From an uncultured Bdellovibrio sp. (GTDB lineage Bacteria; Bdellovibrionota; Bdellovibrionia; Bdellovibrionales; Bdellovibrionaceae): DNA of 64,000 nt. Below are positions 6,821-55,837 of the stretch, piece by piece. Location of the stretch: assembly GCA_963932905.1 (NCBI GenBank), contig CAWVRN010000016.1, forward strand, positions 32,412 through 96,411, written 5' to 3'. The position numbers were made by a program, and so were the translations under genes. A model generated the notes under the pieces. It saw only the letters and a program-made list of their open reading frames with translations. It searched no databases and had not been told where the DNA came from. Numbering within the stretch: position 1 is the first letter of the stretch; each line of letters opens with the position of its first letter.

Positions 6821-7135
6821 TAGAGAATTGAATCCGCTCTGTCTTTAAGGGTTTTTTATTTTAGATTCCTACAATCAACGAAGCTGTGTAACCCGATGTT
6901 GTATTGCCAGAAATACTGACTAGCTGAGTGGGATAGCCATCGCTAAAAACATTATCCGTGGCATAACTAATTTTCGCTAAATTAGCTTTACTGCTGCTGT
7001 GTGTGGAAGCACTGTGGAACTTTCTCGTATTATTATGAGCCGATGTCGTTTAAACAGCTGTAGACGGCATTTCCGGGTCCTAATTAAGCCAAAATGATTT
7101 GACAGAATACTGGCGGCCATCGCAGCTTAATATTC

Positions 7136-37977: not shown

Positions 37978-39190
37978 TCTTCCTTTCTTTTTTGAAAAAT
38001 TCTTCGGGCAAATTAACTTTGTCCTTCATAACAATCCAGACATCGCGGCCTGAACCGATAGCAACCGTCGGTGCAAGATTTTGCGCCTGTTGCAAGTACC
38101 ACTGAGCCACCATACCTGCGGCATTTGAAGCTCCGCCTGCGACGGCGTACTTCCCGGCATCACCAGTCATCATCGAAGAACCGCCCCCCAGAGGATTCGT
38201 GCTCTGGGTTGTTTGCGAGGCTTGAACTGCCTTCCCAACACCATCAACCACACCCGCGATGAATGCCATTGCAGCTACTCGGCCTTGTTTTGAGTTCACT
38301 TGCCCTTTCATGGCAAAAGATCCGTCCTTGTCGTCGGCAACAAACCCATTCACTTCGCGCTCAAACATCTTTCCTTTTTTGGAAACGCAGCTCATCTTGG
38401 TCGCCTGCATTTGCACGCGCTCAGTTGAAAGATCTCCTTCCGCCTTTGCGATCATAAAGCAGCCCGAGAGATCAATTTTATGATCGTTCGGACCAACGTA
38501 AGAAAAATCGAGCACCATCAGAACCGGATAGGTCTTTCCCTCGGGCACATCAACGCCAGTTAGAACTTTCGCTTTCACGTAGCTACCAGAAGGCAAGACA
38601 ACACCTTCGGTTTTAACGTCGCTCTTAACGGGAAACGCAATAAGATCGGGACCTTTTGCTTTCACACGACTAACTGGCGAACGAACGGGCGAAACGGTTC
38701 CACCAGGAGGTGCGTCGTAAAGCTGAATTGGTGTTTCTTGGTTCGGAGTTCCAGCATTCGGTGCGATCCCCAAGCTTTGCGGTTGTCCATTTACGGATGG
38801 CGGCAAATCTGTTTTCGACTGATTTACGTTTGTCGCAGCAGCATTCGCTTCTTGAAGTTTCTTTTCCAGTTCTGCGAGGCGAGCTTCAAGTTTACTTTGT
38901 CCTTCAAACATAGCTTGGGCCTTTTGAGAAAGAAGACGCTCTTTTCCGTAGTAGAATGTGCTTTCTCGATCATTCAGAATTCTTCCATTCTGAAAACTGA
39001 CGGCGGCACCGCGCTCAATAACTCGGTTCTCTTTTTCACCGATAAGTCCAAAAAAATTAATAACGAGCAAAACTCCAACTACAGAAAGGCCAACGATGAT
39101 TGGCTTTTTTTGAGTAAGTTCTTTGATCCTTAAGTGATGCTTTTTCCAGTCGAAGGATTTAATCTGAACTAGAATATTTTCTGCGTTCAT
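37931..39190 (-). CDS. traB: TraB/VirB10-like protein
   Basis: TM, coiled coil, Pro-rich linker, LPSGSYVKAKVLTGVD, GCF...GDLSTERV. Confidence 0.88.
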   Translation of the reverse strand: MNAENILVQIKSFDWKKHHLRIKELTQKKPIIVGLSVVGVLLVINFFGLIGEKENRVIERGAAVSFQNGRILNDRESTFYYGKERLLSQKAQAMFEGQSKLEARLAELEKKLQEANAAATNVNQSKTDLPPSVNGQPQSLGIAPNAGTPNQETPIQLYDAPPGGTVSPVRSPVSRVKAKGPDLIAFPVKSDVKTEGVVLPSGSYVKAKVLTGVDVPEGKTYPVLMVLDFSYVGPNDHKIDLSGCFMIAKAEGDLSTERVQMQATKMSCVSKKGKMFEREVNGFVADDKDGSFAMKGQVNSKQGRVAAMAFIAGVVDGVGKAVQASQTTQSTNPLGGGSSMMTGDAGKYAVAGGASNAAGMVAQWYLQQAQNLAPTVAIGSGRDVWIVMKDKVNLPEEFFKKERKNGDEGIYSYFTRVLE

Positions 39191-39192
39191 TT

Positions 39193-40113
39193 CTACTCCC
39201 CCTTCTTAGGATTGGCAGACGCTTCGTCTGATTCCATCGCTAAAATTACATCGCTACTTGAAGATGTGTTTTTAGCGACGACACGAATCAATGTTTCGCT
39301 GACACCTTTTCCTTTTGGATACAAAGTGGTCTCGTCACTCTGAGAGAGAATCGCTAAGTTTGGCTCTCCCACGGTGAGATGCCTTACATCAACTTCGACA
39401 TTTTTTTTCCAGCTCGTGTTCGTGAGCTTAAAAACATACCCGTTAAATGGAGAGCCCCGATAAATGCGAATCAGCTCAGCTCGCGCACTGGAATTTTTTG
39501 ACGGGAAGCTTTGCGAGACACGATAAAGCTTGTATCCCGACACAGCGTCGTCTCGTACCATCGCCTTTAGCAGTTCGACTTCGGAAATGACGGGAGCGTT
39601 CTCGGAATCTCCAGCTTCTGCTGATTCTCTGGATTTGAAATCGTACAGACCGTCAGCCGCCGGATCATTGGGACTTACAATGATTTTTGTCCTCACCACC
39701 GATTTATCAACCAGAAAGAAAATGACTTCGTTAACTCCATTCGTAAAGCGCGGAGTCACTTCAAGATCAGTGTAACTTGGATCGGAAGCGTTCGCGGGCT
39801 TGATCTGAAGTTTACTAGCACCCGAGATTGTTTGAACCGCCTTCGAAAAGCGAAAAATTGTCGGCCCTCCATGCTTGATGCGAACTTGCTCGGTCCCTGT
39901 GCCGTAAACTACAACTTTTGCCTCCGCACGGGATACAAGCAGGAACACCAGCAGAAGAATTCCGACGAGGTAAGTTCCAAATGCAATTTTAAAAGCGACT
40001 TTTCGAAAAAGCATTTTAAGACTCTCAATCTCAAAATTAAGTCCCTGATCCAGATCAATTGTTTTGTTATCGACCATTTGTTTTCCCTCCGTTGGCGCTT
40101 GGCTTAAATCCAT
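39193..40113 (-). CDS. traK: TraK-like protein
   Basis: Signal-like segment, ELLKAM..D..SGY; order traL-traE-traK-traB-traV. Confidence 0.65.
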   Translation of the reverse strand: MDLSQAPTEGKQMVDNKTIDLDQGLNFEIESLKMLFRKVAFKIAFGTYLVGILLLVFLLVSRAEAKVVVYGTGTEQVRIKHGGPTIFRFSKAVQTISGASKLQIKPANASDPSYTDLEVTPRFTNGVNEVIFFLVDKSVVRTKIIVSPNDPAADGLYDFKSRESAEAGDSENAPVISEVELLKAMVRDDAVSGYKLYRVSQSFPSKNSSARAELIRIYRGSPFNGYVFKLTNTSWKKNVEVDVRHLTVGEPNLAILSQSDETTLYPKGKGVSETLIRVVAKNTSSSSDVILAMESDEASANPKKGE

Positions 40114-40795
40114 CAGATCGCCCGCGCTTAAGGCTCGTGATTTCGAGATACCATTCCTTGCCTTTAACTGGAGGGACGAGCTTCATCAGCATTTCAATGA
40201 CCTCGTCCACATGGCCCACGCTCTCGCTATTGGTGTATCTCTCTCTTTGAGCTATTGCGGTGACCTTGTAGAATCCCTCGCCGGTCGCAACGACTTCGCG
40301 ATCTGTAATCCGCAAAATCTCAGAAATATTTTCGCTCTTAACTGTCTCGCGCCACTCCCTGGCTTCTTCTTCAAACTGAATCTGAAGCTGAGGAGTCATG
40401 AAGTTGGATAAACGCTTGTACTGTTCATCAATGTTGGCGGCATTCACGTTCCCGAGCATACTTAAGAAGCTAAGCGCAGCATTAACCACATAAGTGTCCG
40501 ACACCGATTGCGGAGACGCGGTCGTAAAATCCATTACCCCTGGAGCCAAGATATATTCTTTTTCACGAAGCTTTGTTTCAAGACCGTGAATCTCGAACCT
40601 TGCGAGGGCAAAGTGCATGGCGAATGCCGCAATATGAATTGCGAGAATGTACTGAAGCGTTAAGCGCTGCTTTATCATCGCCGACTTAAAGGCCACGTAC
40701 TTTGGCAGAATGCGAAGATCTACCCCTTGGTAGACACCCACAGGTGGCACTGCCACCTGTGCCGCTTCAATTCCCTTATCCATCGCTGTTAGCAT
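40067..40795 (-). CDS. traE: TraE-like protein
   Basis: Single TM then ILAPG...LGNVNAANID; start moved to Met 40795; synteny. Confidence 0.7.
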   Translation of the reverse strand: MLTAMDKGIEAAQVAVPPVGVYQGVDLRILPKYVAFKSAMIKQRLTLQYILAIHIAAFAMHFALARFEIHGLETKLREKEYILAPGVMDFTTASPQSVSDTYVVNAALSFLSMLGNVNAANIDEQYKRLSNFMTPQLQIQFEEEAREWRETVKSENISEILRITDREVVATGEGFYKVTAIAQRERYTNSESVGHVDEVIEMLMKLVPPVKGKEWYLEITSLKRGRSDGFKPSANGGKTNGR

Positions 40796-41024
40796 CTCGT
40801 TTACCTTTCCTTTTAGGTTTTGCATCAGGACTTGGACTCTGGGGCTCAATCCTTTCAGCAGCATGGTTTTGAGCAATGACATCCAGGTACTTGCGAGGCA
40901 AAATCCACGTTTCAACGCGCTCAATGATCCAGTAGCGACCATCTCTAGATAGTTTTGCGCGAGTATTGAAATTCGGTTTCCGGTCATATGTTTTTGCCCC
41001 TTGTTCGTCGGTTTGGTTGTCCAT
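40776..41024 (-). CDS. Small hypothetical protein
   Basis: GAGGGAG RBS then MDNQTDEQ...; fills the gap between traL and traE. Confidence 0.55.
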   Translation of the reverse strand: MDNQTDEQGAKTYDRKPNFNTRAKLSRDGRYWIIERVETWILPRKYLDVIAQNHAAERIEPQSPSPDAKPKRKGKRDANSDG

Positions 41025-41065
41025 AGTTCTCCCTCTTGGTTTGTTGTTGTTTTCATTTCTTCCTC

Positions 41066-41380
41066 TCAATCTGAAAATCTGCGGTCGTTGCTCTTCGGAT
41101 TCACAAGGCCGGGAAGCTCCATCCGAAGGCGCGAAAAGGGCCAGTGAAAGAAAATTCCTTTTGGATATTTCTTTTTAATCACTGGTCCAAACCCCAGACA
41201 CAAACTCAGCAAAGTGAACATCGTTCCCCACGAGTAGAAGAGGACTCCAAAGACAAGAATGATGAAGAGCGCGATGAAGACATCCGACAGTTCCCAAATA
41301 TCGAAAACCATAATTGGCGAGTCGATGGTTTGGCTCACCAGGGATGAGTATTTTGCCTTCAAGAGCTCTTGCTTACGCAT
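41066..41380 (-). CDS. traL: TraL-like protein
   Basis: TIDSPIMVFDIWELSD, two TMs, KKKYPKGIFFH. Confidence 0.75.
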   Translation of the reverse strand: MRKQELLKAKYSSLVSQTIDSPIMVFDIWELSDVFIALFIILVFGVLFYSWGTMFTLLSLCLGFGPVIKKKYPKGIFFHWPFSRLRMELPGLVNPKSNDRRFSD

Positions 41381-41816
41381 TTAAACTCCTCGGGCTCACA
41401 ATATGATTTAGTGAAAACACCCCGCCACCACCGCCGATGTCGAAAATGTTCTTAACCCATGTAGGCGCAGTGCCGAGGACCAGTGCCGCAACGATACAGA
41501 GTACAGCGATTCCAAATCGTTGCTCTTTCAAGTTCCAGCCTGCCGACATCACGCAGAGCCCAGCAAAAATCCGCGCTCCCCACGAGAAGAGCACCGAATC
41601 CACAATACGAAGCAGCGTTCCCGCCGCTTCGAGTTTGTCGCTGGCATCAGCTCCGGGAATTTTAGTTCCCGCAAAAGCATTCGTGTGCGAAAGACAAATG
41701 AGAAGAATGGTAACTAGAATAAAAAAGTACCACTCCTCATGTCTTCGAGGGTTCGGACCCCTCACTTGAGAGCCGTGGATTAATGATCCACACAATAAAA
41801 GGCGTTCTCCGAGCAT
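41373..41816 (-). CDS. Conjugative pilin (TraA/VirB2/TrbC-like)
   Basis: Long leader ending NAFA, two hydrophobic helices; directly before traL. Confidence 0.7.
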   Translation of the reverse strand: MLGERLLLCGSLIHGSQVRGPNPRRHEEWYFFILVTILLICLSHTNAFAGTKIPGADASDKLEAAGTLLRIVDSVLFSWGARIFAGLCVMSAGWNLKEQRFGIAVLCIVAALVLGTAPTWVKNIFDIGGGGGVFSLNHIVSPRSLNA

Positions 41817-41928
41817 AGGTAATCTCCTATCCTTGCTCGAAGTCAGCTCGCCGTTTTGTGGTAGAGAGACTTCTTTTGTTTTTCTTTTGAGCCTATTTGT
41901 GGTGGTGGCTCATTTTATTTTTATAAAA

Positions 41929-42681
41929 TCAATTCGCCGCTTTCAATAGTCGAAGGATCTCGTCGAATTCGTGATATCCTTCAATGGCTGGCAAAAGTGC
42001 TTTCCGCTTTGTGTCCGCAATCAGCAGAAATGGCACACCTTTGATCCCATGTTTTTTTAGATCACTAGGATCAGCTCTTGAGATCGGAACAATTCTTTCT
42101 GCATCCGGCACGGGACCGCTATCTACTTGCAAAGCTTCGACATGAAATCCGCCGTCTTGAAGTTTCTTTAGAACCTGAAACATTCGTCGGCAATGAGGAC
42201 AGGTGGATTCAAAATACATCCTCAAGCGAAAGCGTGACGGATCAAGATCTACATTTTGCTCTTTTACTTTCGGCGGAGCTGGCGCCACCGATACTACATT
42301 TGATGGAACCGTCATCTCGCCATTTTTTGCCATGTACTCAGCCATTCGCTCTTGAAGCTTTGTTTGAAGATCATTCTTCTTCTTCATCAATTCAAACCAC
42401 TGCTTGATATTGTCGTCCGTCGGATTTCTTGCGACCTCCATAAATGGCTCCGGTGGCGTGTAGTCTCCCTCCTTGAAGAATTCCTTATTCTTCGGATCAA
42501 GGAACGTCTTCCACGGAAATTTGCCGTCTTGCTTATCCGTCAGACTCGGCTCTTTTTTGGGAGCGTCTTTTGAGCTTTGCTTATCGCCCCAGAAGTCGAT
42601 CTTAGAGTCGAAGTATTCTAAATTTTCTGCTTGGGCAAAAGATGACAAAAGCAAAAAAAGAATCGTTTTACGAATTACCAA
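41929..42681 (-). CDS. Thioredoxin-fold conjugation protein (TraF/TrbB-like)
   Basis: TTG after AGGAGG; signal; ARNPTDDNIKQW; YFESTCPHC; GVP. Confidence 0.75.
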   Translation of the reverse strand: MVIRKTILFLLLSSFAQAENLEYFDSKIDFWGDKQSSKDAPKKEPSLTDKQDGKFPWKTFLDPKNKEFFKEGDYTPPEPFMEVARNPTDDNIKQWFELMKKKNDLQTKLQERMAEYMAKNGEMTVPSNVVSVAPAPPKVKEQNVDLDPSRFRLRMYFESTCPHCRRMFQVLKKLQDGGFHVEALQVDSGPVPDAERIVPISRADPSDLKKHGIKGVPFLLIADTKRKALLPAIEGYHEFDEILRLLKAAN

Positions 42682-43837
42682 GTTGAACCTCCTTCGAATC
42701 AATTTCTCCTCGAATCGCTCTCGCAATTCGTGCATCTTCCAGAGATTGAAAAACCTTTGGATGCTTAACGCCGTCGTTCACAAATGAAGCCCACTCGATA
42801 CTTGGAACTCGGCCCCGGATTCCTGAAACGCAATTCGGACAACCTTCTTCATGCCTCATGCGCATTTCACTTAAAATCCCCGGATGATTCTTTGAAAACC
42901 AATCAGTCACCTCGACGGATGGTTTTTCTGCACACTCAGTACAAAGTTTTTGCTCAAGTCTCTGCGCAACCGAAAGGCGCAAATTGGATTCTAAGACGAG
43001 TCTTTCAACGCCAAGGCCAGCAAGTCGCTCGATTACTTCTAGCGATCCATTTGCATGAAGAGTGGTAAAGACCAAGTGCCCAGTTTCCGCTGCTTGAAAA
43101 CAAAGTCTCGCGGTTTCGGCGTCTCGCACCTCTCCAACGAGGATAACATCAGGATCTTGCCGAAGCACTGACCTGAGAGCGTCAGCAAAGGTCATCTTGC
43201 GATTTACTTGCACTTGATTGAGGCCCTCAATGCGATATTCAATCGGATCTTCCAAAGTCACAATGTTAAGACGCTTTGGATTTAACGCCTTAAGCAGCGC
43301 ATAGAGAGTTCTCGTTTTACCACTTCCCGTAGGACCTGAAATTACAATGACTCCATCCTCGTATTGCAGGGCTCTTTCAAGCATCTTTTGCTCCGATTCT
43401 AAAAAGCCAAGTTCTGAAAGATTGAAGCTCGCATCAAGATTCAAAAGTCGCATAACAACTTTTTCGCCAAAGTGAGTTGGCAAAAGACTCACACGCAAAT
43501 CAAGCCGTAGCGACGGCAATGAAGCCCTGCCGTCCTGCGGTTTACCGCTCACTCCGATAGAAAGTCCGAAGATCCGTTTTGCTTCTAGAATCAAGCTCTC
43601 TCGGTGCTGAAGCTCTATTGACCTCACGAGAACGAGGTTCCCGTCTACGCGAAGTCTAAAATCAATTCCAAGCTCGGTCGGTTCAATGTGAATGTCACTG
43701 GCACCTTTTGCTTTGGCTTCGGTCACCAAGTCCTTAAGAAGTTTTGCGTAAGGTCCGACATCAGAAAGTAATTGTTCTGCCGTTCGACGTTTGGCGACCG
43801 TAATGCCGTGCTCGTTTTGAAGTTTTAAGCTTGTCAC
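42668..43837 (-). CDS. GspE/PilB family secretion ATPase
   Basis: ASDIHIEP, PQDGR, GPTGSGKT, TLEDPIEY, LRQDPDVILVGEVRD, TGHLVFTTLH, CxxC..CxxC; GTG 43837 after GGAGG. Confidence 0.9.
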   Translation of the reverse strand: MTSLKLQNEHGITVAKRRTAEQLLSDVGPYAKLLKDLVTEAKAKGASDIHIEPTELGIDFRLRVDGNLVLVRSIELQHRESLILEAKRIFGLSIGVSGKPQDGRASLPSLRLDLRVSLLPTHFGEKVVMRLLNLDASFNLSELGFLESEQKMLERALQYEDGVIVISGPTGSGKTRTLYALLKALNPKRLNIVTLEDPIEYRIEGLNQVQVNRKMTFADALRSVLRQDPDVILVGEVRDAETARLCFQAAETGHLVFTTLHANGSLEVIERLAGLGVERLVLESNLRLSVAQRLEQKLCTECAEKPSVEVTDWFSKNHPGILSEMRMRHEEGCPNCVSGIRGRVPSIEWASFVNDGVKHPKVFQSLEDARIARAIRGEIDSKEVQLGNS

Positions 43838-46800
43838 TTCGCACCTCCGCACGCAGCAGGAATGGTAAGGCTCGCGGCTTTTGCTTGAGCGGCTGCTGGC
43901 ATATCCTTGCAGGCAAAAGTGCGACTCCAAATCACGAACAGATAGCCTTTGAGTTTTCCGTTTACGAGCCTCATTGTCTCGCGGGCATTTACGACCGATT
44001 CCAAAATTCCCACGTTCTGACCTTCTCGAAAGCAGGAACTGGATTGCGGATAAATCATCTGCCACTTTTCGTCTGGACTATTGGGCATGGAGTGCAGCAC
44101 TTCTACAGAAAGACTCTTGATACGAGAGGCCACCATCAACGCGCCCGCCATTGATGCCGGACCTGAGTAAGTGCCATAGCGCGGATAAAAGACGCCCCAT
44201 CCGTTACAAACCGAATGAGTGCTTGGCGGAAACATATTGATCTTTGGAACGTCGAAACTACACATGGCCGAGTCAGGGGAAGGAGCGCCGCCCCCTTCCC
44301 CTGTAATAGAAGTCGCGGCACCCTTGAGGAGGCATAACTTTGGCGCAAGCCCCGATGCTAAGAACAGAGGCTGAGTCATGTCATTCTTGCCAGTATTCCA
44401 GTGCGCTCCGAAATGTTCGCTCATTCCATCAAAACAAACTTTCTCCATTCTTGTGCCACCGGCAGGCATTGTTTGAAATGTCAGTCCCGCAAGAGGTACT
44501 GCAATTGTTCTGGCCTGAAAACTCTGAGTGTCGTCATCGGCCTCAGTCCCAAAGGGCTTAGGAAAAATCTTAGCAAGCTGAGCTGACGCTCCTGGGATTC
44601 CTGAAAAATAACTCGTCTTGGGCTCCGGCCACACTTCAATGAAAGTCTGTGGCACATAGTAAGAAATCGCAGCACAGGGTCTTGGAGGATATCCACAAGT
44701 GCATCCCCCGATATTTAATTCCAGGCATGAAGTGAACGCTGGCGTACTTGCTACGGTACAAATATTCGGAATTTCCGCTTGAACATTGCCCGCGAGGAAG
44801 AGGGAGGCTGCTATAGCGCGAAGATTCTGAGCGAAATGCTTAATTCTCTCTACAGCTCCTCCCTTCTTCGTTACACGCAGCATTTCAAGCACTGCCTCAT
44901 GCTTCGTATTGATGAATCTCAAGAAATCAGGCTTAAGATAAAGTTTTAAAAACTTCGTCTCGATTCCATCAAATACTTGAGCGAACGCCTCGAAAGTTCG
45001 AAGCCTTGAGAACTCGCGGCCTGTGATGAGATCTTCTTTTCGCTTTGCTCTGGAGATCGCCTCATTCAAACTTGAATTCTGTGAATCGAATCCTCCGGCG
45101 AGTAAGTTCAGTTTTGCCGACTGCGCTGTTTCTGACATTGAGTGCGATTCAACCTCGCGATCCTCTTTTCCCGCCAATTCTTGGAAAAGCTTGATTGTTT
45201 CCGAATCTGAAGAGTGACAAGCAATTCTTGTTCTAAAGTTTTGCATAAGAACAAGAGCGGCTCTTTGGCTTCCTACCGAATCCATCAGTGAACTGACCGA
45301 TTGAGTCGCGACAATCACGGCGGGCTTTGATTCCCGAGCCTTTGCCATAAAAGTGTCGTCACCGATTGTGCCACCACCTCCGCAGGTCACAACATCTTGG
45401 TACTCATCAATTATGAGCGCTGTCGTGCAGAGTTTTTCTTGCTCTTTCAATTCACTCAGCATATTCAATACGGCCTGCTGATAGTGAAGCTTGATGAATG
45501 TTCCCATTGAGCGCGCAAGTCCTGGTTGATTGATGTCAAAGAGGAGAATTTTTCCTTCACGAATCAACTGCTCCATTGAGCGAATCGTGAGGTTCTCCTC
45601 CTTCGGACATAAAACGCGATTTGCCGCGAACTCCTGGAACTGATTGATGAATGCCGTACTTGTTGCGACGATTCCAGATCTTACGCGGTCCTCAAGCTGC
45701 GAGTATTCGTTTTCGAAATACTCCATAGCCCGTTCAATATTAAATCGCTCTTCTTCAGTGAAGGCGCCCGTATCAAGACGTTTTCGTAAATCGTCTGACA
45801 AATTCTCTTTCGAAGCACGAACGATAGCTCGATAGAGATCAAGCAACGTAAAGTACCCATGTTCTGCCGCACAATAGACGATGGCGTTCTTAATCAAGTT
45901 CGAAGATGAAATATCCCAGAAGGGTGAGTCCGAAGACTTACCCATAAAATTTACAGCAGCAGCTCTAACCATTTCGGCTAGCTCGGTGAACTTTGAATTC
46001 CGAAGCGGGTTTTCGATATAAACGGGGTTAAAGCTCACCGAACCTCGAAGAGAGATTTTGACGATTTTATCCCCAAGGCCTGCACGTCTGATAATTTGCT
46101 CTGCGTCCGCAAGGAAAGTCCGTTTAGGATCAATCGCAAGGATCGCGGGTGAGCTTTCACCGGCCCGCAAGATTTGGCGCAAATAGCGAAGCACGGTCCC
46201 TTGGGTTTTTCCACTACCGATACTTCCTGAAATCATAATCCCACCGTTGAGGCCACGGCTCGGAATTTTAACCCAACTCTCCGACTCTCCTGAATTCTGA
46301 ACAACTGAATGCGTAAGTTGTCCTGGCGTTGTCCCCAGAACGAGTTCGCCTTCTTCAACTTCGGGTGCATCCAGCTTGTGAATGTCATTAAACGAAAACT
46401 TTAGTTTCGCGATTCCGCGCAAGAACATGCGTATAATTAGACCGATGGTGAAAGCAATGTTCGCACTTAGGAGGGCGACAATCCCTGAAGGCTGAAACCC
46501 CTCTGTAAACCGCAGGAAGATTGGCCCAATGAAGTCAGCGATTTGTTTTTTACACGCGAAGTAAGTGACGGCGCTGGTGACAACAGAAACGCACTCGGCT
46601 CTTCCGAATTTTAAGTGTCTTGATTTCCCTTCAAGAACAGCGAGTTTACTTCCTTGTTTTTCAAGTCCAATGGATCTTTTAAGATAAATCGAACCGAACG
46701 AAATATTCACCATCGCGCAAGAGATTGTGATCCAAAAGAGCTTCGCATTCGCCTCTAGCTGCTGAAGCGCAAACTGCAGCAGATCTGGGTGAAGCCTCAG

Positions 46801-46896
46801 ATGTGCGAGATATAAATACACGAGTCCAAATCCGGCGAGCGCCATGAGCGCGAGCGAGAGAGGGACATCACTCTGTGCAGTTTGTGTTCGTGCCAT
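43834..46896 (-). CDS. Type IV coupling protein (TraD/VirD4-like) fused to a C-terminal TraU-like Cys-rich domain
   Basis: N-terminal TMs, GSIGSGKT, IDPK, IIDEYQ, ATQS; after ~aa 700 signal-like segment then SC....GGCTC, SYYVP..FIEV, WGVFYPRYG, KWQMIYP. Confidence 0.8.
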   Translation of the reverse strand: MARTQTAQSDVPLSLALMALAGFGLVYLYLAHLRLHPDLLQFALQQLEANAKLFWITISCAMVNISFGSIYLKRSIGLEKQGSKLAVLEGKSRHLKFGRAECVSVVTSAVTYFACKKQIADFIGPIFLRFTEGFQPSGIVALLSANIAFTIGLIIRMFLRGIAKLKFSFNDIHKLDAPEVEEGELVLGTTPGQLTHSVVQNSGESESWVKIPSRGLNGGIMISGSIGSGKTQGTVLRYLRQILRAGESSPAILAIDPKRTFLADAEQIIRRAGLGDKIVKISLRGSVSFNPVYIENPLRNSKFTELAEMVRAAAVNFMGKSSDSPFWDISSSNLIKNAIVYCAAEHGYFTLLDLYRAIVRASKENLSDDLRKRLDTGAFTEEERFNIERAMEYFENEYSQLEDRVRSGIVATSTAFINQFQEFAANRVLCPKEENLTIRSMEQLIREGKILLFDINQPGLARSMGTFIKLHYQQAVLNMLSELKEQEKLCTTALIIDEYQDVVTCGGGGTIGDDTFMAKARESKPAVIVATQSVSSLMDSVGSQRAALVLMQNFRTRIACHSSDSETIKLFQELAGKEDREVESHSMSETAQSAKLNLLAGGFDSQNSSLNEAISRAKRKEDLITGREFSRLRTFEAFAQVFDGIETKFLKLYLKPDFLRFINTKHEAVLEMLRVTKKGGAVERIKHFAQNLRAIAASLFLAGNVQAEIPNICTVASTPAFTSCLELNIGGCTCGYPPRPCAAISYYVPQTFIEVWPEPKTSYFSGIPGASAQLAKIFPKPFGTEADDDTQSFQARTIAVPLAGLTFQTMPAGGTRMEKVCFDGMSEHFGAHWNTGKNDMTQPLFLASGLAPKLCLLKGAATSITGEGGGAPSPDSAMCSFDVPKINMFPPSTHSVCNGWGVFYPRYGTYSGPASMAGALMVASRIKSLSVEVLHSMPNSPDEKWQMIYPQSSSCFREGQNVGILESVVNARETMRLVNGKLKGYLFVIWSRTFACKDMPAAAQAKAASLTIPAACGGAK

Positions 46897-48642: not shown

Positions 48643-48689
48643 AGAAGTCGACTCTGACCTCAGCAAGCAATATTTTGAAACCAAGCTAA

Positions 48690-50252
48690 CTAGGAATCCC
48701 GGACAGCACTCATAACCATTCTCACAGAGTTATCCACCATGCGCCTCAAGTCACCTTTGCCGTTGGCGTGGTCTTTTCGACTAACGACGTCCATGCTTTC
48801 CCAAATCCCCAAGGCCTGGCACTGACTGCGTAGGGATGACCGAGCCACTCCAAGCTTCCTGGCGGTCTCAGACAAGTTATATTCGCTTGCTTGGTATGTC
48901 TTAAGGATAAGTGTTCTAACTTCGTTTTCATGACGAGCATTCATTTGCTCAAGAGATTCAAGGGTTGTCACGTTTTCAACATTCGCAGCACCTTCAAGCT
49001 CCCCGTATTTCTCGATATGCTCTGGCAAGATGATTGGGCCGCTTACTAAGACCGAAAGTCTTTCGATTAAATTTTCCAGCTCGCGGACATTTCCAGGCCA
49101 CGAATAGGCTCGAAGCATATCAAGCGAATCGGGATGCAACTGTTTGGGTACGCCGTCAGATTGTGATGGTCGTCGTTTTTCTAGAAAGAACTCGCATAAG
49201 ACTTCAACATCGTTGGGCCGCTCAGCAAGTCTTGGCAGATCAATCTTGATCTGCTTCATCCGATAGATCAAATCAGCCAAAAACTTGTCTTCATTTACGA
49301 GGACTTTCAAGTGCGGCTTTGAGGCGAATACCAATCGCACATCAACATGTTTTTCGGTGCTACCGCCGACTCGTCGAACTTTTCGATCCTGAATAAATCG
49401 CAATAGCATCGCCTGCGCTTCGTCACTCAAATGATGAACTTCATCTAAGAAAACGGTTCCGCCATTAGCCACCTCAAGGAGACCGATTTTTGATTCAGCT
49501 CCAGTGAAAGCACCTTTTTCGCTCCCGAATAATTCGCTAGCGATAAGTTCCGATTTTTTGAATTGCGTGCAATCAATTGTACGAAACTGTTTCTCTTTTC
49601 GATCTGAATTCTGATGAATCGCTCGGGCAAACAACTCTTTTCCAGTTCCCGTTTCTCCGTAAATTAAAACTGATAAATCTGATTTCGCTGTTTGCAAAAC
49701 AAGATCTGCGGCCGCTTTCATTTCACGATCAACAGATACAACTCCGATTTTTTTGAGAGAGTCAGGCACTTGACTCATGCGGCGAGTGCGATTTCCCAGG
49801 AACCCATTGAATTTGGAGCGAAACTTCGTCAGAGCTTCAGTGATAAAAATTTGCAGCTTTTCTTGCTGCCCGACGAATTCCTTATAGAGGAACTTGTCAG
49901 CGCCATTTTTTAGCCATAAGCGAAGGCTCTCTGGTGTTGTATCCGACGACATCATAACTATCTCGATATAAGAGTTCACTCTTTTGATCGGACGTATGAA
50001 GTCTGCTCCTAAAGTAGTCTTCTCTTTTGATTCATGAAAATGATGATCCATAAAAACCAAAAAGACGTTGAAGGGATTTTTCTTTATCGAATCAAGGGCC
50101 AGCACTGGATGCGAATGAAACTCGACATCGAAAGCGCGCTCTGCTCCAAAGGCTGAATCGAGCGATATCTTGAGCCCGTCACGAAAGCAGCTTTCGTCAT
50201 CTACAAAAATAACTCGTGGTTGTTCCATAGGACCCTCCCTCAATGCGTTCAA
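48690..50252 (-). CDS. sigma54-dependent response regulator (NtrC-like bEBP)
   Basis: REC (VDDE, FMDH, K), GETGTGKE, SELFGSEKGAFTGA, FLDEV, WPGNVREL, Fis-type HTH. Confidence 0.93.
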   Translation of the reverse strand: MNALREGPMEQPRVIFVDDESCFRDGLKISLDSAFGAERAFDVEFHSHPVLALDSIKKNPFNVFLVFMDHHFHESKEKTTLGADFIRPIKRVNSYIEIVMMSSDTTPESLRLWLKNGADKFLYKEFVGQQEKLQIFITEALTKFRSKFNGFLGNRTRRMSQVPDSLKKIGVVSVDREMKAAADLVLQTAKSDLSVLIYGETGTGKELFARAIHQNSDRKEKQFRTIDCTQFKKSELIASELFGSEKGAFTGAESKIGLLEVANGGTVFLDEVHHLSDEAQAMLLRFIQDRKVRRVGGSTEKHVDVRLVFASKPHLKVLVNEDKFLADLIYRMKQIKIDLPRLAERPNDVEVLCEFFLEKRRPSQSDGVPKQLHPDSLDMLRAYSWPGNVRELENLIERLSVLVSGPIILPEHIEKYGELEGAANVENVTTLESLEQMNARHENEVRTLILKTYQASEYNLSETARKLGVARSSLRSQCQALGIWESMDVVSRKDHANGKGDLRRMVDNSVRMVMSAVRDS

Positions 50253-51640
50253 GCTTCTTTCGCCGCAAGACTAAGCTGAACGCCGGTTTGTACTTTTGCA
50301 TTTCGATTCATCGACATCGGCAAAAAAATTCTGACTGCGGTGCCGACTCCTTCCTTAGAAGATATCAAAATTCTGCCATTGTATTTTTCGATTATTTTCT
50401 TGGCCCACTGTAAACCCAAACCTTTGCCGTTGGGTTTACCAAAAGACCCACCTTTTTCTAAGATCGTCTTTAAAACTGACTCCGAAATTCCAGAACCGTT
50501 ATCGACAATTGAAATGCAGCACTCATTCGCAATTCGTGTGCAGTTTACGTCAATGCTTCCCCGGTCAGAAACGGCATAGAGTGCGTTGTCGATTAAGTTT
50601 GAAATAATCCGTTTGAAGTCACTGACTTGCATTTCAATGAAGGTATCCTCGGTATTTAGTTTTGTTTGGACGGACACTTGTGGCGTCTGCCTACACATCA
50701 GGCTTTTTTCAGCAACTATTTCGTTCAAGGCAAGATCGACAGACATCGGAAGTTTTTGTATCGGCACTCTGTACTCAGAGCTTTTGCTGGAGGCTGTGTA
50801 TTGGCTGATAACATCGTTTGCGATGTCACTGATCCTCTGCGCCGAGTGATTTAAAACACCCTTGATCGTCGGGTCGAGATGAACTTGTGCCGCATTGAGC
50901 GCCACCTGAAGACTCACAATCGGTGAGCGAATATCATGTGCAACTTGTCTTGCAACATCAAGCGCCGCTTTTGCTTCGGCTGCTGCCTTAGTTACTTCAA
51001 ATTGGTAACTCAAGTTTTCGGCCAAAGAGGAGAATTCACTAATTTTAAATTTTGGTGTTTTTTTCTTGTCGCCCGTTTGGGTTTCTAAGATCTTCATCAA
51101 TTCATTAAGCTCGATTCGAATTCGTGAAAATCCGATTGAAAGACCAGCAAACAATATTACGGCAAGAAGTACGAATCCGATTGCGTTCTTCCCTGCGTTT
51201 TTCCAAATTCCTGCAATTAGATCCGAATTGTCGAACGTAATCGAGATATGTCCCATCCAATTCGAAGCATCCTCAGAAAAGTAGAGATCCGTATCCATGC
51301 GATGAAGTCCTGATGAGGAAGTTTTCAGCTTATTGCAACTTTGAATTGTTTCTGAGATCGACTTAATTTCGATGCAGAAGATTTGTGAGTTCTGCGCAAG
51401 TTCGTTCGCCCGAATTCTTGCTTCAATAAGACTTCCTTGAATAAGCGGTTGGCGAACGACCGCTGCGAAAGTTTCAAATGTGAGTTTCTGACTATCGAGA
51501 CGGGAAGTTTTGTTAACTCGATAGTCGTTCCACGCCAACAGTCCGCTAATGGCGGTGCTGACAAGGAGGACGATTGGAATAAAAATTCTCAGAAAGTATC
51601 GTTGAATAGATCTTGTCGGAGATTTCCCTAGAATTCCCAC
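50249..51640 (-). CDS. Sensor histidine kinase
   Basis: Two TMs around a periplasmic domain; AHDIRSP, NLIDNA, DNGSG, GKGLGL. Confidence 0.93.
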   Translation of the reverse strand: MGILGKSPTRSIQRYFLRIFIPIVLLVSTAISGLLAWNDYRVNKTSRLDSQKLTFETFAAVVRQPLIQGSLIEARIRANELAQNSQIFCIEIKSISETIQSCNKLKTSSSGLHRMDTDLYFSEDASNWMGHISITFDNSDLIAGIWKNAGKNAIGFVLLAVILFAGLSIGFSRIRIELNELMKILETQTGDKKKTPKFKISEFSSLAENLSYQFEVTKAAAEAKAALDVARQVAHDIRSPIVSLQVALNAAQVHLDPTIKGVLNHSAQRISDIANDVISQYTASSKSSEYRVPIQKLPMSVDLALNEIVAEKSLMCRQTPQVSVQTKLNTEDTFIEMQVSDFKRIISNLIDNALYAVSDRGSIDVNCTRIANECCISIVDNGSGISESVLKTILEKGGSFGKPNGKGLGLQWAKKIIEKYNGRILISSKEGVGTAVRIFLPMSMNRNAKVQTGVQLSLAAKEA

Positions 51641-53085
51641 TACAATCCCTTCACAAGATGGAGTCTCGGTGTATAGCGGAAAGTAGCCTCTTCAGAGATC
51701 ATGTTGGTTTGGCCGATAATGTAAAGCGGAACACGCCATCCCGGAACCATCAGCTGCTCTTTACGGAGCTGCTCATTGATCTGCTGAAACAGTTCACTTC
51801 TGACAGTCCAATTTTCTTCTTGTCTGGCACGCTTGTATTTTTCGGCAAGAGCCGGACCAATATAAGTTCCAAAATCTTTTACAAGAAATGTCGGGAGAAG
51901 AGCAATAAATCCTTCGGGATCATTAAACCCACCAGCCCATCCACCAAATATTACGTCAGGTTTTTTCTCAACTATTTTCGTCATTTCAGATGGAGAAATT
52001 TTGATAATCTCAATTTGGAAGCCGTGCTCTTTCGCAATTGCTTGAGCGTCATTTCCCTTAAGAAAGTCATCGAATGTAGCGCCTATGAACGCAAGCCTGA
52101 GTGGTTCTGTTTTTTCATATTTTTTATGCGTAATCTTTGGAGCTTGTGTAGCTGCTAAATGACCCGCAACTCCTTTGGGAATGACGCCGGTTGCTCGCTC
52201 AAGTTCCAATTTCTTACAGCCCTTATCGAGGATCTCTTCAATCAATCCCATCGCTCGGATGCGCATTTCCGGTGTATTGAAATGAGTTCCGTGCGGATGC
52301 CACCACGCTGATGTTTGAGCATAGCTTATTTGGTTCACTGTTTTGAGCTTTTCAAATCCGCTCACTTTTTGCATACCGACCTTTGTGGATAGGGTCGCAC
52401 CAGGAACGTAATCAGGAAGACCGACGGCGGGCACATTGAGATCATGATCACCAAAGAAAACAAGCTGCCATTCGCGGATGCTGATAGCTGACGATTTTGG
52501 ATATTTCTCATTTACTTCGAGATTCCAATTCGCACCTTTTTTTAAAAGACGATAAGGTCCTGAGCCAACGAGGGGTTCTGAAGAATCTTTATCGAAGCTC
52601 CAATCAATAGGAACGACACCAACTTGGTCTCGACTTAGAGCTTTAAGGATCGACACGTTGGGCTCTTTAAGGCGAATAATGAGGACGTCTGAAGCTGGGA
52701 CTTCGATGGATGAAATGCTGCCGAGAAAATTACTCGACTGGGATTTTTTCTGAATGACACGATCAATGGTATATTTAATGTCTTTGGCTTCGAGCTTTTT
52801 CCCATTGGAAAAAAAGCGATCTTTTCTGATTTTGAATTTAATTGTGAGACCCTTGTCCTCAAACGACCAACTCTCAGCAAGGCCCGGAGTAACATTACCC
52901 ATCTTATCGGTATCAACCATAGGCTCGAGAATTTGACCCAATACAATGTGCTCTGCGAATTGATTAACCTCAGCGGGATCGCGGGGAAATGTTGGCGGTA
53001 CATATCCATATTTTTTTGGTGCTGCCGAAACCATTGATGATGTCATAAAAATAATTCCTCCTATGAGAACAAGCCACCTTTTCAT
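51640..53085 (-). CDS. Family-5 (OppA/DppA-like) solute-binding protein, no permease nearby
   Basis: Signal peptide; PGLAESW..., FKIR..RFFSNG..LEAKDIKYTI, VGSGPY. Confidence 0.85.
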   Translation of the reverse strand: MKRWLVLIGGIIFMTSSMVSAAPKKYGYVPPTFPRDPAEVNQFAEHIVLGQILEPMVDTDKMGNVTPGLAESWSFEDKGLTIKFKIRKDRFFSNGKKLEAKDIKYTIDRVIQKKSQSSNFLGSISSIEVPASDVLIIRLKEPNVSILKALSRDQVGVVPIDWSFDKDSSEPLVGSGPYRLLKKGANWNLEVNEKYPKSSAISIREWQLVFFGDHDLNVPAVGLPDYVPGATLSTKVGMQKVSGFEKLKTVNQISYAQTSAWWHPHGTHFNTPEMRIRAMGLIEEILDKGCKKLELERATGVIPKGVAGHLAATQAPKITHKKYEKTEPLRLAFIGATFDDFLKGNDAQAIAKEHGFQIEIIKISPSEMTKIVEKKPDVIFGGWAGGFNDPEGFIALLPTFLVKDFGTYIGPALAEKYKRARQEENWTVRSELFQQINEQLRKEQLMVPGWRVPLYIIGQTNMISEEATFRYTPRLHLVKGL

Positions 53086-53882
53086 TAACTGGCCTGCTTT
53101 CCTGCAATCTCAACCAACTTCTTAGCAAATGAAGTTAGCTCTTGATCCTCAAATGCCTCTGTGTTTTGTCGTAAGAGGTCTTGATATTTTTGATTTGTTT
53201 CTCCAGTTGAGCGCTGGAACTGAACCATTCGATACAACGCCCACAACGAATGCAGCCTGCCGATTGGAGGTCTCTTTGTTCCCTGAAAGGGCGCATGAAC
53301 CTCGTTATAGTCAAATGGTTGATTCACTAGCCGATCGAGCAGATTCACAAGAAATAATTCTTGATGGGCCATTTCGTGAACAACAGAAACGGCCAGTTGT
53401 TGCACTGTTTGCTGTCTGACCCCATCCCCAATTAAAATTAATCCGAATATATGGGGATGCGAGGCGCTTCTGAAATTCACGCCCCTTACCCGCAGAAATC
53501 CACTGATATTTTCTTTTCGCAACGACGAAAGATCTTTGTCCGCCTGATCAACTAACATCAGTGCTTCTTGAAGTTTACTTCGTGTCTCAACTTCGAAAGC
53601 CCCGATACTCGAACCTTCGTAATCGACAAAGAATGTTGCTTCAATAAGGCTTTTCGCGGCAACACTCAGTTGGAGTGGATCAATGGCCTGACTCAAATTT
53701 GGCAACGAAATTTGATCGGGGTGAACTTTTCCGTAAAACCCCATGCACAACGCTGAAAGACTCTTAGCAAGGGGATCGACCTGCAATCCAGTTGCTAAAC
53801 GTCTTCGAAAAGAGGGAGCGATATCTTGCAGACACCACTCCCCGCGGCTCAATTCTGAGAGGATTCGTTCAATCAGACTCAT
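53085..53882 (-). CDS. HExxH-motif protein (alphaKG-HExxH/TIGR04267-like putative peptide-modifying enzyme)
   Basis: SASHPHIFGLI, VVHEMAHQELF, APFQGTKRPPIGRLHSLWA; no signal peptide. Confidence 0.8.
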   Translation of the reverse strand: MSLIERILSELSRGEWCLQDIAPSFRRRLATGLQVDPLAKSLSALCMGFYGKVHPDQISLPNLSQAIDPLQLSVAAKSLIEATFFVDYEGSSIGAFEVETRSKLQEALMLVDQADKDLSSLRKENISGFLRVRGVNFRSASHPHIFGLILIGDGVRQQTVQQLAVSVVHEMAHQELFLVNLLDRLVNQPFDYNEVHAPFQGTKRPPIGRLHSLWALYRMVQFQRSTGETNQKYQDLLRQNTEAFEDQELTSFAKKLVEIAGKQAS

Positions 53883-53883
53883 T

Positions 53884-54192
53884 TTAGAGAGCGCTCGCTT
53901 TTATGATGTCAGCAGCTAAAATTTTGAAGGCACCATTTTCAAAAACTGAGAGATCAAGCTCGCCATCTTGTTTAACCTGAAAAGCAAGATCGCTCGCACT
54001 TTTGGCCTGCGCAAGTTCAGTCAATTTCTGCAAATCAATTTTCATCGTTTGTGCAGCGGATTGAGTTAGGGAATAGTAAATACCTTTTTGAAGAGAGTTA
54101 AGATCAATCGCCTTTTCTCCACACGCATGCGCGGCCTCGATTCCCGCTGCTAGAGCCGCTATTGCACCTATAGTACTTTTTAATATTTTCAT
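53884..54192 (-). CDS. Small secreted protein, putative signal-peptide precursor
   Basis: GGGGG RBS; Sec signal ending AHA|C; first gene of the operon. Confidence 0.7.
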   Translation of the reverse strand: MKILKSTIGAIAALAAGIEAAHACGEKAIDLNSLQKGIYYSLTQSAAQTMKIDLQKLTELAQAKSASDLAFQVKQDGELDLSVFENGAFKILAADIIKASAL

Positions 54193-54231
54193 CGAACCCC
54201 CTTTTTGATTTAAAACCTACGAAATTCTCTA

Positions 54232-54247
54232 TGCAGAGACGGTGCCA
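54232..54247 (-). promoter_or_regulatory. sigma54 -24/-12 promoter of the signalling operon
   Basis: TGGCAC-CGTCT-CTGCA, near-consensus, 40 nt upstream of ATG 54192. Confidence 0.85.
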
Positions 54248-54293: not shown

Positions 54294-54394
54294 TCGTCGA
54301 GAACTCGCCAATACCTATTTATTCAACGATAGCGGTCGTCGAAATCTCGCCAAAGGCGGTGTCTTTTAGGCTAACTGGTGTCGAAATCACGCCA
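54294..54394. promoter_or_regulatory. Three 17-bp activator-site-like repeats at exact 42-bp spacing
   Basis: TCGTCGAGAACTCGCCA (54294), TCGTCGAAATCTCGCCA (54336), GTGTCGAAATCACGCCA (54378). Confidence 0.8.
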
Positions 54395-54796: not shown

Positions 54797-55837
54797 ATGC
54801 AGAGTATCGAATTTTATCAAAATCATCTCAATAAAGTGAGCCGGAGTTTTTCTTTCTGCATTGCACGTCTTGATCATGAAATGCGCTTATGGGTCAGTAT
54901 TTCTTATTTGCTTTGTCGAATTTTAGATTGCATTGAAGATGCCAGTTGGATCTGTAAAAGCGATCAAGAAGCAACCTTCAATGACTTTGATGATTTTGTA
55001 AAGAACAGGCCTGAGGCTATAGATTTTCATGAGTGGATTGTGCGGTTTCCTAAAAATATGCCATTGTTTGAAATTCAGCTAATTGAAGACTCACATGCGG
55101 TTTTTTCTGACCTCCACAGTCTCCCTGAAAATATAAAAAAGCATATCGTTAAAACAGTCATTCAAATGAGTTTTGGCATGCGGAAATTTGTTTTGCAAAA
55201 CGGATCGAATCAAAAAATTAAATTGAGCAGTATTCAAGAAGTGAATATCTATTGCTATTTCGTTGCCGGCGTTGTTGGGGAACTCCTATCCGCCCTATTG
55301 ATGGAGAAACACACAAACTCGCAATTCAAATTTAAAAATCTGACACACCAGTATCAGTTTGGTTTGTTTTTACAAAAAATAAATATTCTTAAAGATCAAA
55401 AGACGGATGAAAGTGAGGGCCGGTATCTGGTTCACTCTCGTGAAGACTTGCTTTCGAGTCTGTCCAGCAATGCAGACGGAGCACTTCAGTACTTGCTCGA
55501 CATTCCAATTTGTGAAAAAGGGTATAGATTATTTTGCGCTTGGTCATTGTTTTTAGGGCTGTCGATGTTGCCATTTTTAAGACAAACGTGGTTGAAAAAT
55601 TTATTTTCTAGAATGCCGCGAAAATGGGTCGAAAAAAAATTAAAACATCTAGAAACAATTATCGACGACAATGAAAACATTGGCCGATTCTTCTCGAAAA
55701 GAATGCCTCGAAATAGTATTTTTAGGCGCAGTCCACACAACCCGAAAAAAGTGCTAACCTTCGCTGAGCTCAGTGCGAACTATAATTTGATTTTGCCTGA
55801 AAACTCTCTCCAAGAATTAGGCCTTGTCGGAAGATAG
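54797..55837 (+). CDS. Squalene/phytoene synthase family protein
   Basis: VSRSF, YLLCRILDCIED, YCYFVAGVVG, FGLFLQKINILKD; start uncertain (54737 or 54797). Confidence 0.85.
   Translation: MQSIEFYQNHLNKVSRSFSFCIARLDHEMRLWVSISYLLCRILDCIEDASWICKSDQEATFNDFDDFVKNRPEAIDFHEWIVRFPKNMPLFEIQLIEDSHAVFSDLHSLPENIKKHIVKTVIQMSFGMRKFVLQNGSNQKIKLSSIQEVNIYCYFVAGVVGELLSALLMEKHTNSQFKFKNLTHQYQFGLFLQKINILKDQKTDESEGRYLVHSREDLLSSLSSNADGALQYLLDIPICEKGYRLFCAWSLFLGLSMLPFLRQTWLKNLFSRMPRKWVEKKLKHLETIIDDNENIGRFFSKRMPRNSIFRRSPHNPKKVLTFAELSANYNLILPENSLQELGLVGR

Follow-up and report, generated by a model that had tools for sequence, protein, structure and literature searches.

What does a stand-alone HExxH enzyme do when the gene ahead of it encodes a small exported protein and there is no radical S-adenosylmethionine (radical SAM) partner? 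The question is raised by two adjoining genes on a contig of an uncultured Bdellovibrio sp. (genome size, 4.55 Mb), of which a 64-kb stretch, here called the window, was analyzed. A first-pass annotation, made from the letters of the window, had taken the two genes for a minimal system for a peptide that is ribosomally synthesized and then post-translationally modified (RiPP), in which the small protein is modified or cleaved in the cytoplasm before export and then acts as a signal. We asked what the enzyme is, whether the small protein is its substrate, where the substrate would be modified, and what the product might be for.

The sequence features on which the annotation turned, a HEMAH motif and a PF...RP..G.LH block with a small gene 1 nt away, are all present on the minus strand. 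HEMAH occupies residues 169 to 173 of the HExxH protein (53364-53378, minus strand), and the PF..., RP, and G.LH elements lie at residues 198 to 211. The protein scored 51.6 bits (E = 1e-13) against the NCBIfam model TIGR04267 (mod_HExxH; IPR026337), for which the cut-off is 40, and 52.4 bits when the whole genome was searched with this model. Six residues, H169, E170, H173, R204, P205, and H211, were invariant among 28 sequences, and we infer that they are metal or co-substrate ligands. A profile of nine relatives matched ChlH (PDB 8s5f) with an E value of 2.3e-9 across the HExxH...D...P..RPP.G.LH block. An AlphaFold2 (AF2) model of the protein, made from 28 sequences, had a predicted local distance difference test (pLDDT) value of 93.3; used as a Foldseek query, it matched the HExxH domain of ChlH (8s5f) with an E value of 1.2e-9 and a TMq of 0.62, and SjiH (22ob) with an E value of 1.6e-6. 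Membership of the protein in the alpha-ketoglutarate (aKG)-HExxH oxygenase family, as the annotation had proposed, is thus well supported by sequence and model comparisons. Because a Kyte-Doolittle scan found no hydrophobic segment, the protein is most likely cytoplasmic. The genome has 23 radical SAM (PF04055) matches, all of them on contigs other than the window's, in agreement with the claim that the enzyme has no such partner.

The small protein begins with a K-rich start and a hydrophobic stretch, followed by ...EAAHA/CGEK. By inspection of the sequence and a hydrophobicity rule, on which all our signal-peptide calls rest, its signal peptide covers about residues 1 to 23, and a folded domain covers about residues 30 to 102. 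The AHA/C signal-peptidase site that had been pointed out can be read from the sequence, but its Cys occurs in the allele group of the window and in no other; the remaining groups have S, N, Q, or E at this place. We therefore take it for a signal peptidase I site and not a lipobox. A lipoprotein reading was rejected on this ground and because, judged by the lipobox rule, the His at -2 and an acidic residue in the stretch before it are misfits. In the AF2 model (pLDDT, about 85) the signal peptide is disordered and residues 30 to 102 form a small alpha/beta domain. The protein has no Gln string, it matched no family in Pfam or NCBIfam, and fold searches with the model matched no known fold (best Foldseek/PDB E value, 0.22; best VIA-align wide Z, 3.2). 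A feature match of 0.76 in the ESM Atlas to an automatic "putative lipoprotein" cluster was not used. A word-indexed search for the family returned 23 clusters, every one of them unnamed or "hypothetical," and a full HMMER pass over 1.84 billion cluster representatives returned 50; by these searches the family is a small one. The Pfam/NCBIfam scan found no protease gene within the operon to which the two genes belong, and the signal-peptidase site is the only site readable for removal of the leader.

Of the 41 genomes searched, 9 had a relative of the HExxH protein, and the window's genome is one of the 9. When species-representative genomes were scanned, 43 HExxH loci emerged (loci are denoted L and genomes G), nearly all of them labelled Bdellovibrionota and most of them Pseudobdellovibrionaceae or Bdellovibrionaceae. 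The first-pass annotation had suggested asking whether homologous HExxH genes also have a small secreted neighbor, and they usually do. When searched with a hidden Markov model for the window's small protein, limited to its C-terminal third (E value of 0.01 or better), 34 of the 43 loci showed the arrangement expected of a RiPP, a motif-bearing precursor gene beside the modifying enzyme. The starts of 29 of these small open reading frames (ORFs) are signal-peptide-like, one is cut by the end of its contig, and four (L051, L055, L058, and L059) have no leader; the leaderless precursors of L051 and L055 are about 20 to 25 aa long and contain little beyond the motif. The nine loci with no match are L032 and L047, which are cut by contig ends, and L054 and L060 to L065, the most distant seven. 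A few near-identical or related cassettes (L023, L032, L052, and L063) have labels outside the Bdellovibrionota, namely "Candidatus Altimarinota," a "Streptomyces griseus" metagenome-assembled genome, and "Pseudomonadota," and by record taxonomy "Oligoflexales" (L032) may also lie outside the phylum; such labels are likely binning or labelling issues and not transfer.

What the small proteins share is a motif at the C terminus. The consensus of 86 distinct sequences is [LIV]-[DN]-[LIV]-S-[IV]-[FY]-[DE]-x3-F-x2-(p1)-(p2)-(p3)-D, and in the AF2 model of the window's protein this motif covers the last strands and the beginning of the C-terminal helix. The final Asp, D95 in the window, is kept in 85 of the 86 sequences, the exception being a truncated sequence; the Phe six residues ahead of it is kept in 76, and p2 is Arg in 52. 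At p1 we counted Leu 27 times, Ala 26, Met 9, Ser 7, Ile 4, and Pro 4, the Leu count being inflated because close variants of the window's allele were included. The exact tetrapeptide ARMD is found in L034, L037, L038, L042, L046, and L050, and also in several metagenome proteins. The window's allele reads L-A-A-D-IIKASAL, without ARMD and without the small first residue. The annotation had held that the active core could not be identified from a single sequence; the relatives do reveal it, as a motif that is conserved and not hypervariable.

This motif leads to a published chemistry. PflC and PosC are stand-alone aKG-HExxH enzymes of Pseudomonas that hydroxylate a Gln string (Ouyang et al., bioRxiv 2025, PMC12636437). 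They also recognize a C-terminal ARMD in precursors of ~100 aa and make an oxidative cut in the backbone at Ala, so that the main product carries an amide and the released piece a ketone (PMC12636437). Only the first residue of ARMD is critical: small side chains give cleavage, and Gln, Val, or Ser gives beta-hydroxylation without cleavage. An extension of the C terminus past ARMD is tolerated, and the motif must be far enough from the N-terminal leader (PMC12636437). In the window's family the same tetrapeptide occurs at the same terminus of a similarly sized precursor, and the adjoining gene encodes an enzyme of the same family; we therefore take the small protein to be the substrate and the motif to be the site of modification. 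By this analogy, both the pairing of enzyme and substrate and the location of the core are very probable, and the earlier suggestion of modification or cleavage before export is a reading that fits the PflC/PosC chemistry.

The analogy also makes predictions. For relatives of the ARMD type, cleavage and amidation are predicted, with a short tail remaining in the cytoplasm. For the window's allele the prediction is hydroxylation without cleavage, since the first residue of LAAD is bulky and the published rule would then apply; because LAAD differs from ARMD at three of its four positions, the chemistry in the window is an extrapolation. An alternative for the window would be beta-hydroxylation of the near-invariant Asp, which is the reaction of ChlH as described in PMC12636437. 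The residue at p1 varies naturally (Ala in some relatives; Leu, Ile, or Met in the clade of the window), and this variation offers a test, already at hand, of the published rule that this residue determines whether the backbone is cleaved or hydroxylated without cleavage. One precursor of a different build is that of L058 (4725-4934), from the Bacteriovoracaceae, in which the motif is present twice (two ...VDEVFGESRVNG... repeats); the neighboring genes encode a JmjC/cupin-type oxygenase and an MFS transporter, and there is no binding protein or kinase.

Could the HExxH protein instead be an ordinary zinc metalloprotease, or be unrelated to the small gene, the adjacency being meaningless? We consider this very improbable. 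The HExxH signature is common to zincins, PflC is reported to be hydrolytic on truncated substrates (PMC12636437), and zinc peptidases are found among the Foldseek rows that remain after ChlH and SjiH. However, those rows all have E values of 0.08 or worse, and by E value ChlH is matched about eight orders of magnitude better than any peptidase. In addition, the TIGR04267 score is above its cut-off, and the adjacency and the ARMD-like motif are both conserved.

The pair does not stand alone, as the notion of a minimal two-gene RiPP would have it. Five genes, those for the small protein, the HExxH enzyme, a substrate-binding protein (SBP), a histidine kinase, and a sigma54-dependent response regulator, lie head to tail on the minus strand (Table 1). 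The start of the HExxH gene is 1 nt past the stop of the small ORF, the HExxH stop overlaps the SBP ATG by 1 nt, the SBP stop and the kinase start likewise overlap by 1 nt, and the kinase and regulator genes overlap by 4 nt when the count is made from the called TTG start of the regulator at 50252. The true start of the regulator is probably the ATG at 50228, which matches the start in relatives (MEQPRV...). At the sequence level, the pair is the head of a tightly coupled five-gene operon. Across the 43 loci, an SBP gene adjoins the HExxH gene in 29, contig ends truncating six of the other 14, and 25 loci gave a kinase match. The genes come mainly in one of two orders: type A, that of the window, ends with the regulator gene, and type B (L037 to L050) begins with the gene for a different sigma54 regulator.

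Table 1. Features of the operon and its upstream region (window coordinates)
Feature	Position	Strand	Basis or remark
Upstream repeat 1 (TGGCGTGATTTCGAC), putative activator site	54380..54394	-	Genome pattern search, 8-locus alignment
Upstream repeat 2 (TGGCGAGATTTCGAC), 42 bp from repeat 1	54338..54352	-	Same as for repeat 1
Upstream repeat 3 (TGGCGAGTTCTCGAC), 42 bp from repeat 2	54296..54310	-	Same as for repeat 1
Sigma54-type promoter, TGGCAC-N5-CTGCA	54232..54247	-	About 55 nt ahead of the start codon of the small gene
Ribosome-binding site (GGGGG) of the small gene	54197..54201	-	Sequence reading; conserved in 8-locus alignment
Gene for small exported protein, 102 aa	53884..54192	-	ORF; no Pfam or NCBIfam match
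Conserved core motif, residues 79-95 (LDLSVFENGAFKILAAD)	53908..53958	-	Family alignment
L92-A93-A94-D95, aligned with ARMD	53908-53919	-	Family alignment
Gene for stand-alone aKG-HExxH-type enzyme, 265 aa	53085..53882	-	NCBIfam, profile, fold, invariant residues
Gene for orphan family-5 (peptide/nickel type) SBP, 481 aa, with signal peptide	51640..53085	-	
Gene for histidine kinase, 463 aa	50249..51640	-	Pfam, NCBIfam, hydrophobicity scan
Gene for sigma54-dependent response regulator (REC-AAA+-HTH)	48690..50252	-	Pfam, NCBIfam
Terminator-like hairpin and T-run, directly after the regulator stop	48644..48661	-	Consensus scan only

Judging from its DNA, the operon is driven by an activator-dependent sigma54 promoter. 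All nine type A loci for which upstream sequence is available have the same sigma54 element, at -53 to -57. When the pattern was widened to TGGC-N8-TGC[AT], 21 of 31 loci had a match no more than 200 nt from the first gene of the operon (background, 0.0106 per 200 nt); 11 of the 12 type B loci were among these, with the match upstream of the regulator gene. The genome has rpoN. In the entire window the sigma54-type pattern has two matches, the second of which (54944-54959, minus strand; TGGCATCTTCAATGCA) is inside a squalene-synthase-like gene on the opposite strand and is probably there by chance. A scan for sigma70 promoters gave no excess over shuffled sequences (9 versus a mean of 9.2).

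Upstream of the promoter, the alignment of eight loci revealed an imperfect palindrome, TTGGCGAnnTTCTCGAC, conserved in three copies at intervals of about 42 bp. Searching the genome with the pattern TGGCGNNNTNTCGAC gave five matches, three of which are this triplet; a reversed control pattern gave three scattered matches. No other clustered copy of the repeats was found by pattern search in the whole genome, and the operon is therefore the only evident target of its own regulator, for which the three repeats are putative binding sites.

By a hydrophobicity scan, the SBP has one N-terminal hydrophobic segment, and the kinase has two transmembrane (TM) segments, at residues 19 to 37 and 153 to 171, with a periplasmic domain of about 115 aa between them. 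Genes for an ABC permease or ATPase were found neither within the operon nor near it in the window. The layout of a binding-protein-dependent sensor, a transporter-less SBP encoded beside a kinase with a periplasmic domain, is thus present. The nearest solved relatives of the SBP are the transport binding proteins AgaA, NikA, OppA, and AapF, and orphan binding proteins can work with distant permeases. It could be that the SBP delivers this peptide, or an unrelated one, to an ABC permease encoded elsewhere and that the kinase senses something else. Since neither a permease nor an ATPase gene accompanies the operon in the window, and since the 1-nt overlaps of the SBP gene with the HExxH and kinase genes are conserved, we consider such an import role quite improbable. 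A complex prediction with the mature SBP (residues 23 to 481) and the mature small protein (residues 24 to 102) returned no answer (score, 0.00), which speaks neither for nor against binding.

Four distant loci have a different kinase. At L051 (7334-9958), L055 (6916-9924), L059 (5900-8515), and L061 (5937-8672), the kinase is 870 to 1,000 aa long with ~12 predicted TM segments ahead of the kinase core, and the precursors are short and leaderless (at L061 the precursor is a weak match only). The ~12-TM region matched no Pfam family, even at E values up to 1; it may be a transporter-like domain or one that senses a peptide directly.

Taken together, these features suggest the following course of events. 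In the cytoplasm, the Fe(II)/aKG-dependent HExxH oxygenase would bind the C-terminal motif of the still-unfolded small protein (the beta-strand LDLS-V/I-F/Y, the conserved Phe, and then x-R/A-x-D) and oxidize it, as family membership and the motif shared with published substrates imply. In relatives with A-R-M/V/I-D, the backbone would be cut oxidatively at Ala, as with PflC and PosC, and a C-terminal amide would be left; the L-A-A-D of the window would instead be hydroxylated without cleavage, gaining 16 Da (+16 Da), on Leu92 or on the near-invariant Asp95. The signal peptide indicates that the modified protein would then leave the cell via Sec and be cut after AHA. The third step is the least certain: the orphan SBP would bind the product or a fragment of it and dock on the periplasmic domain of the kinase. 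The kinase would phosphorylate the sigma54 activator, which would act at the three repeats spaced by 42 bp and fire the sigma54 promoter, a step in line with the sequence elements upstream of the operon. The outcome would be a positive loop of the autoinducer type.

A signal role for the product is plausible, and the architecture of the operon favors it. We rate the full autoinducer chain as a serious possibility that falls somewhat short of an even chance. A bolder proposal is that an exported protein is "written" by an oxygenase that uses O2, Fe, and aKG, being either hydroxylated or cut and amidated, and is then read by an SBP and a kinase, which would be a new kind of cell-cell signal; this we regard as rather doubtful.

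The relationships among the cassettes bear directly on these proposals. In six loci (L026 to L031) the SBP, kinase, and regulator are 89 to 95% identical to those of the window, the HExxH protein is 62 to 65% identical, and the small protein is 46 to 50% identical. Nucleotide identity rises from about 50 to 65% to about 85 to 95% within roughly 150 nt of the start of the SBP gene and drops again right after the regulator gene; both flanks are unrelated in the relatives. GyrB of the window's genome is 94% identical to that of G006, the source of L026, and the closest relative by GyrB, G009 (97%), has a quite different cassette (HExxH, 42%). In a tree of HExxH proteins, the window's groups with L023 and L024 (support, 93/99) and is 0.86 changes per site from L026. 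In a tree of SBP plus kinase, the window groups with L026 to L031 (support, 86/100; paths of about 0.07), and L024 is outside. The two trees are thus incongruent, no branch in them being at the tool's "starred" level. The simplest reading of these sequence comparisons is that the precursor and the enzyme have been exchanged as a unit against a conserved sensor backbone, a pattern reminiscent of pherotype loci.

Several results weigh against a self-made signal. No fixed amino acid difference in the mature SBP or kinase separates the precursor allele groups; only the signal peptide of the SBP, which adjoins the breakpoint, differs between them. We had considered that receptor specificity groups might track precursor alleles, as pherotypes, and this idea is not supported. 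In addition, two cassettes of one genome, L042 and L046, share an almost identical core, and the core alone therefore cannot give channel specificity. Both observations argue against a specific lock between signal and receptor and toward an effector function of the small protein, and the signal role is unproven, given that the putative receptor fails to vary in step with the precursor. Thus, of the first-pass claim that the small protein acts as a signal, what stands is the architecture that favors it, and what fails is the expected co-variation of the receptor. The exported part is also a folded domain of about 75 aa, which exceeds the usual ligands of family-5 binding proteins. Moreover, the core is the conserved part of the small protein, unlike the hypervariable core of a typical RiPP, and the LAAD of the window departs from ARMD to the extent given above. 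Finally, 10 of the 31 loci lack the wider sigma54 pattern. Most of these (L048, L051 to L053, L056, and L057) have no sigma54 regulator in view; the others are the type B locus L044, in which a sigma54 regulator is present, and L034 to L036, which are of the G003/G009 type and of which L036 has one in view. As an aside, the SBP gene of L042, one of the two cassettes of G010, is split into two ORFs (5593-6726 and 6739-7278), and could be a pseudogene or a sequencing error.

If the small protein is an effector, the SBP and kinase would sense an unrelated outside cue, such as prey or cell-wall peptides, and the small protein would be a regulated and secreted output whose action on other cells might be antagonistic, adhesive, or inhibitory; its fast divergence would be that of an arms race. 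A sensor backbone that is 89 to 95% identical where the precursor and HExxH proteins are 46 to 65% identical, with no co-variation, fits this explanation. So do the incongruent trees, which are as for swapped effector cassettes, and the fact that this operon is the regulator's only evident target. A related small protein of Pseudomonas is reported to be antibiotic-related (PMC7726476). However, the linkage of the precursor and HExxH genes to the SBP and kinase genes survives deep divergence and changes of gene order and of regulator type, and is tighter than would ordinarily be expected between a sensor and an arbitrary target. An SBP of the family-5 type fits a peptide ligand made next door, and in the Pfam scan of the neighborhood no immunity or export gene was evident around the operon. 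We therefore judge an effector to be a possible but unlikely explanation.

A small protein that is exported, folded in the AF2 model, and encoded in the operon that its sensor controls could also be an accessory protein, that is, a CpxP-like modulator of its own kinase or SBP whose hydroxylation state, set in the cytoplasm by an enzyme that depends on O2, Fe, and aKG, would report the metabolic or oxygen state of the cell to the sensor. The co-substrates of the enzyme family are physiological variables (PMC12636437), and sensors that read only the conserved modified tail need not co-vary with the rest of the precursor. On the other hand, the leaderless precursors of 20 to 25 aa in distant loci could have no periplasmic action unless they were exported otherwise, and fold searches gave no similarity to any known accessory protein. 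An accessory role thus seems improbable, and we keep the autoinducer loop, at the strength given above, as the working model.

The stretch is found in sludge, wastewater, and groundwater metagenomes of many studies. Three metatranscriptome libraries, from three studies, contain contigs of 160 to 239 nt that match it with at most one mismatch (99% identity or more); the small gene is partly covered in two runs and the HExxH gene in one. These matches are a weak hint that the operon is expressed. Telling against more than a hint, the RNA runs were found with this very sequence, DNA carry-over is possible, and the contigs show no strand; parts of the operon without cover in the RNA libraries carry no information, and X14 is probably DNA.

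The flanking genes of the operon are not kept with the cassette and gave no clue to its context. On one side are the squalene-synthase-like gene, TetR regulators, and an RND pump. Among the genomes searched, an AcrB-like pump is no more than 50% identical in the four of the same genus and 57% identical in G010, of the same family, and the squalene-synthase-like gene was matched in one of five relatives. On the other side, beyond the regulator, is a run of genes (37931-46896, minus strand) that resembles a conjugation or type IV secretion system, with a TrwB/TraD-type coupling protein, a T2SSE-type ATPase, TraF, TraE, a TraK-like protein, and TrbI; the cassette may lie on the margin of a mobile element. 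The same genome has a second, distant HExxH gene, in L022 (6190-8597; about 13190-15600 of contig C15 of G000), which encodes a protein of 280 aa that scored 58.8 bits to TIGR04267. Upstream of it is an ORF of 53 aa without a signal peptide, and downstream is a gene for a 459-aa protein with ~six hydrophobic segments and weak P-loop matches. Lacking both a binding protein and a kinase, this trio resembles a conventional RiPP set more closely.

The aKG-HExxH enzymes were recognized as oxygenases only in 2024 to 2025, and so far only in antibiotic-type RiPP clusters. The locus described here links the family to a Sec-exported substrate, to a conserved and testable core shared with the ARMD site, and to a dedicated sensor circuit. 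The enzyme family and the motif are known; what is new is the format of the substrate and the context of the circuit. Our search of the literature on HExxH/RiPP enzymes, on TIGR04267, and on HExxH proteins in Bdellovibrio found no description of this architecture, and we know of no described peptide-type signaling in the Bdellovibrionota, a phylum of predatory bacteria. Should the product be sensed, the locus would open peptide-type signaling in this phylum and would provide a naturally occurring example of an exported protein that bears an oxygen-dependent mark. If the whole proposal is true, this would be the first quorum- or kin-sensing circuit of the peptide or protein type in the Bdellovibrionota, one in which production of the signal is licensed by oxygen and metabolic state and in which the signal and its writer are exchanged between strains as a module.

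Among known systems, the closest in enzyme and substrate are PflC with PflA and PosC with PosA (PMC12636437). In these, too, a stand-alone aKG-HExxH enzyme is encoded beside a precursor of ~100 aa, and the C-terminal A-R-M-D site is found in many relatives of the window's small protein. The differences are that PflA and PosA have a nitrile-hydratase-like leader, whereas here there are a Sec signal peptide and a small alpha/beta domain; that the Gln string and the MNIO-nitroreductase, GNAT, and efflux genes of those clusters are missing here; and that the window has an SBP, a kinase, and a sigma54 regulator and reads LAAD. The likeness is drawn from the motif, the precursor size, and membership in the enzyme family. 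ChlH, the HExxH domain of ChlBH (PDB 8s5f), beta-hydroxylates Asp and His (Morishita et al., Nat Chem 2024, as cited in PMC12636437), and Asp is also the near-invariant residue of the window's family. Unlike the stand-alone enzyme of the window, ChlH occurs as a fusion with a radical SAM cyclophane synthase and requires that a macrocycle be installed first (PMC12636437). In family and fold the two are the same.

The sensor half of the operon has its own parallels. In LuxP-LuxQ, TorT-TorS, and AioX-AioS-AioR, a transporter-less periplasmic binding protein is encoded beside a two-TM kinase and small molecules made elsewhere are sensed; AioXSR also ends in a sigma54 activator. The window's transporter-less SBP beside a two-TM kinase is alike in this, but its operon also encodes a candidate ligand and the enzyme that would modify it, and the SBP is of the family-5 peptide/nickel type. 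The circuit as a whole recalls agrBDCA, comQXPA, and the autoinduction of nisin and subtilin, in which precursor, modifying enzyme, kinase, and regulator form one self-activated locus; the sensor region of the kinase varies together with the signal in agr and com. As in comQXPA, the precursor and enzyme of the window's family are polymorphic against a conserved regulator. Unlike in agr and com, the sensor does not co-vary, and what sets the window apart from all of these circuits is Sec export, a folded exported domain, and oxygenase chemistry.

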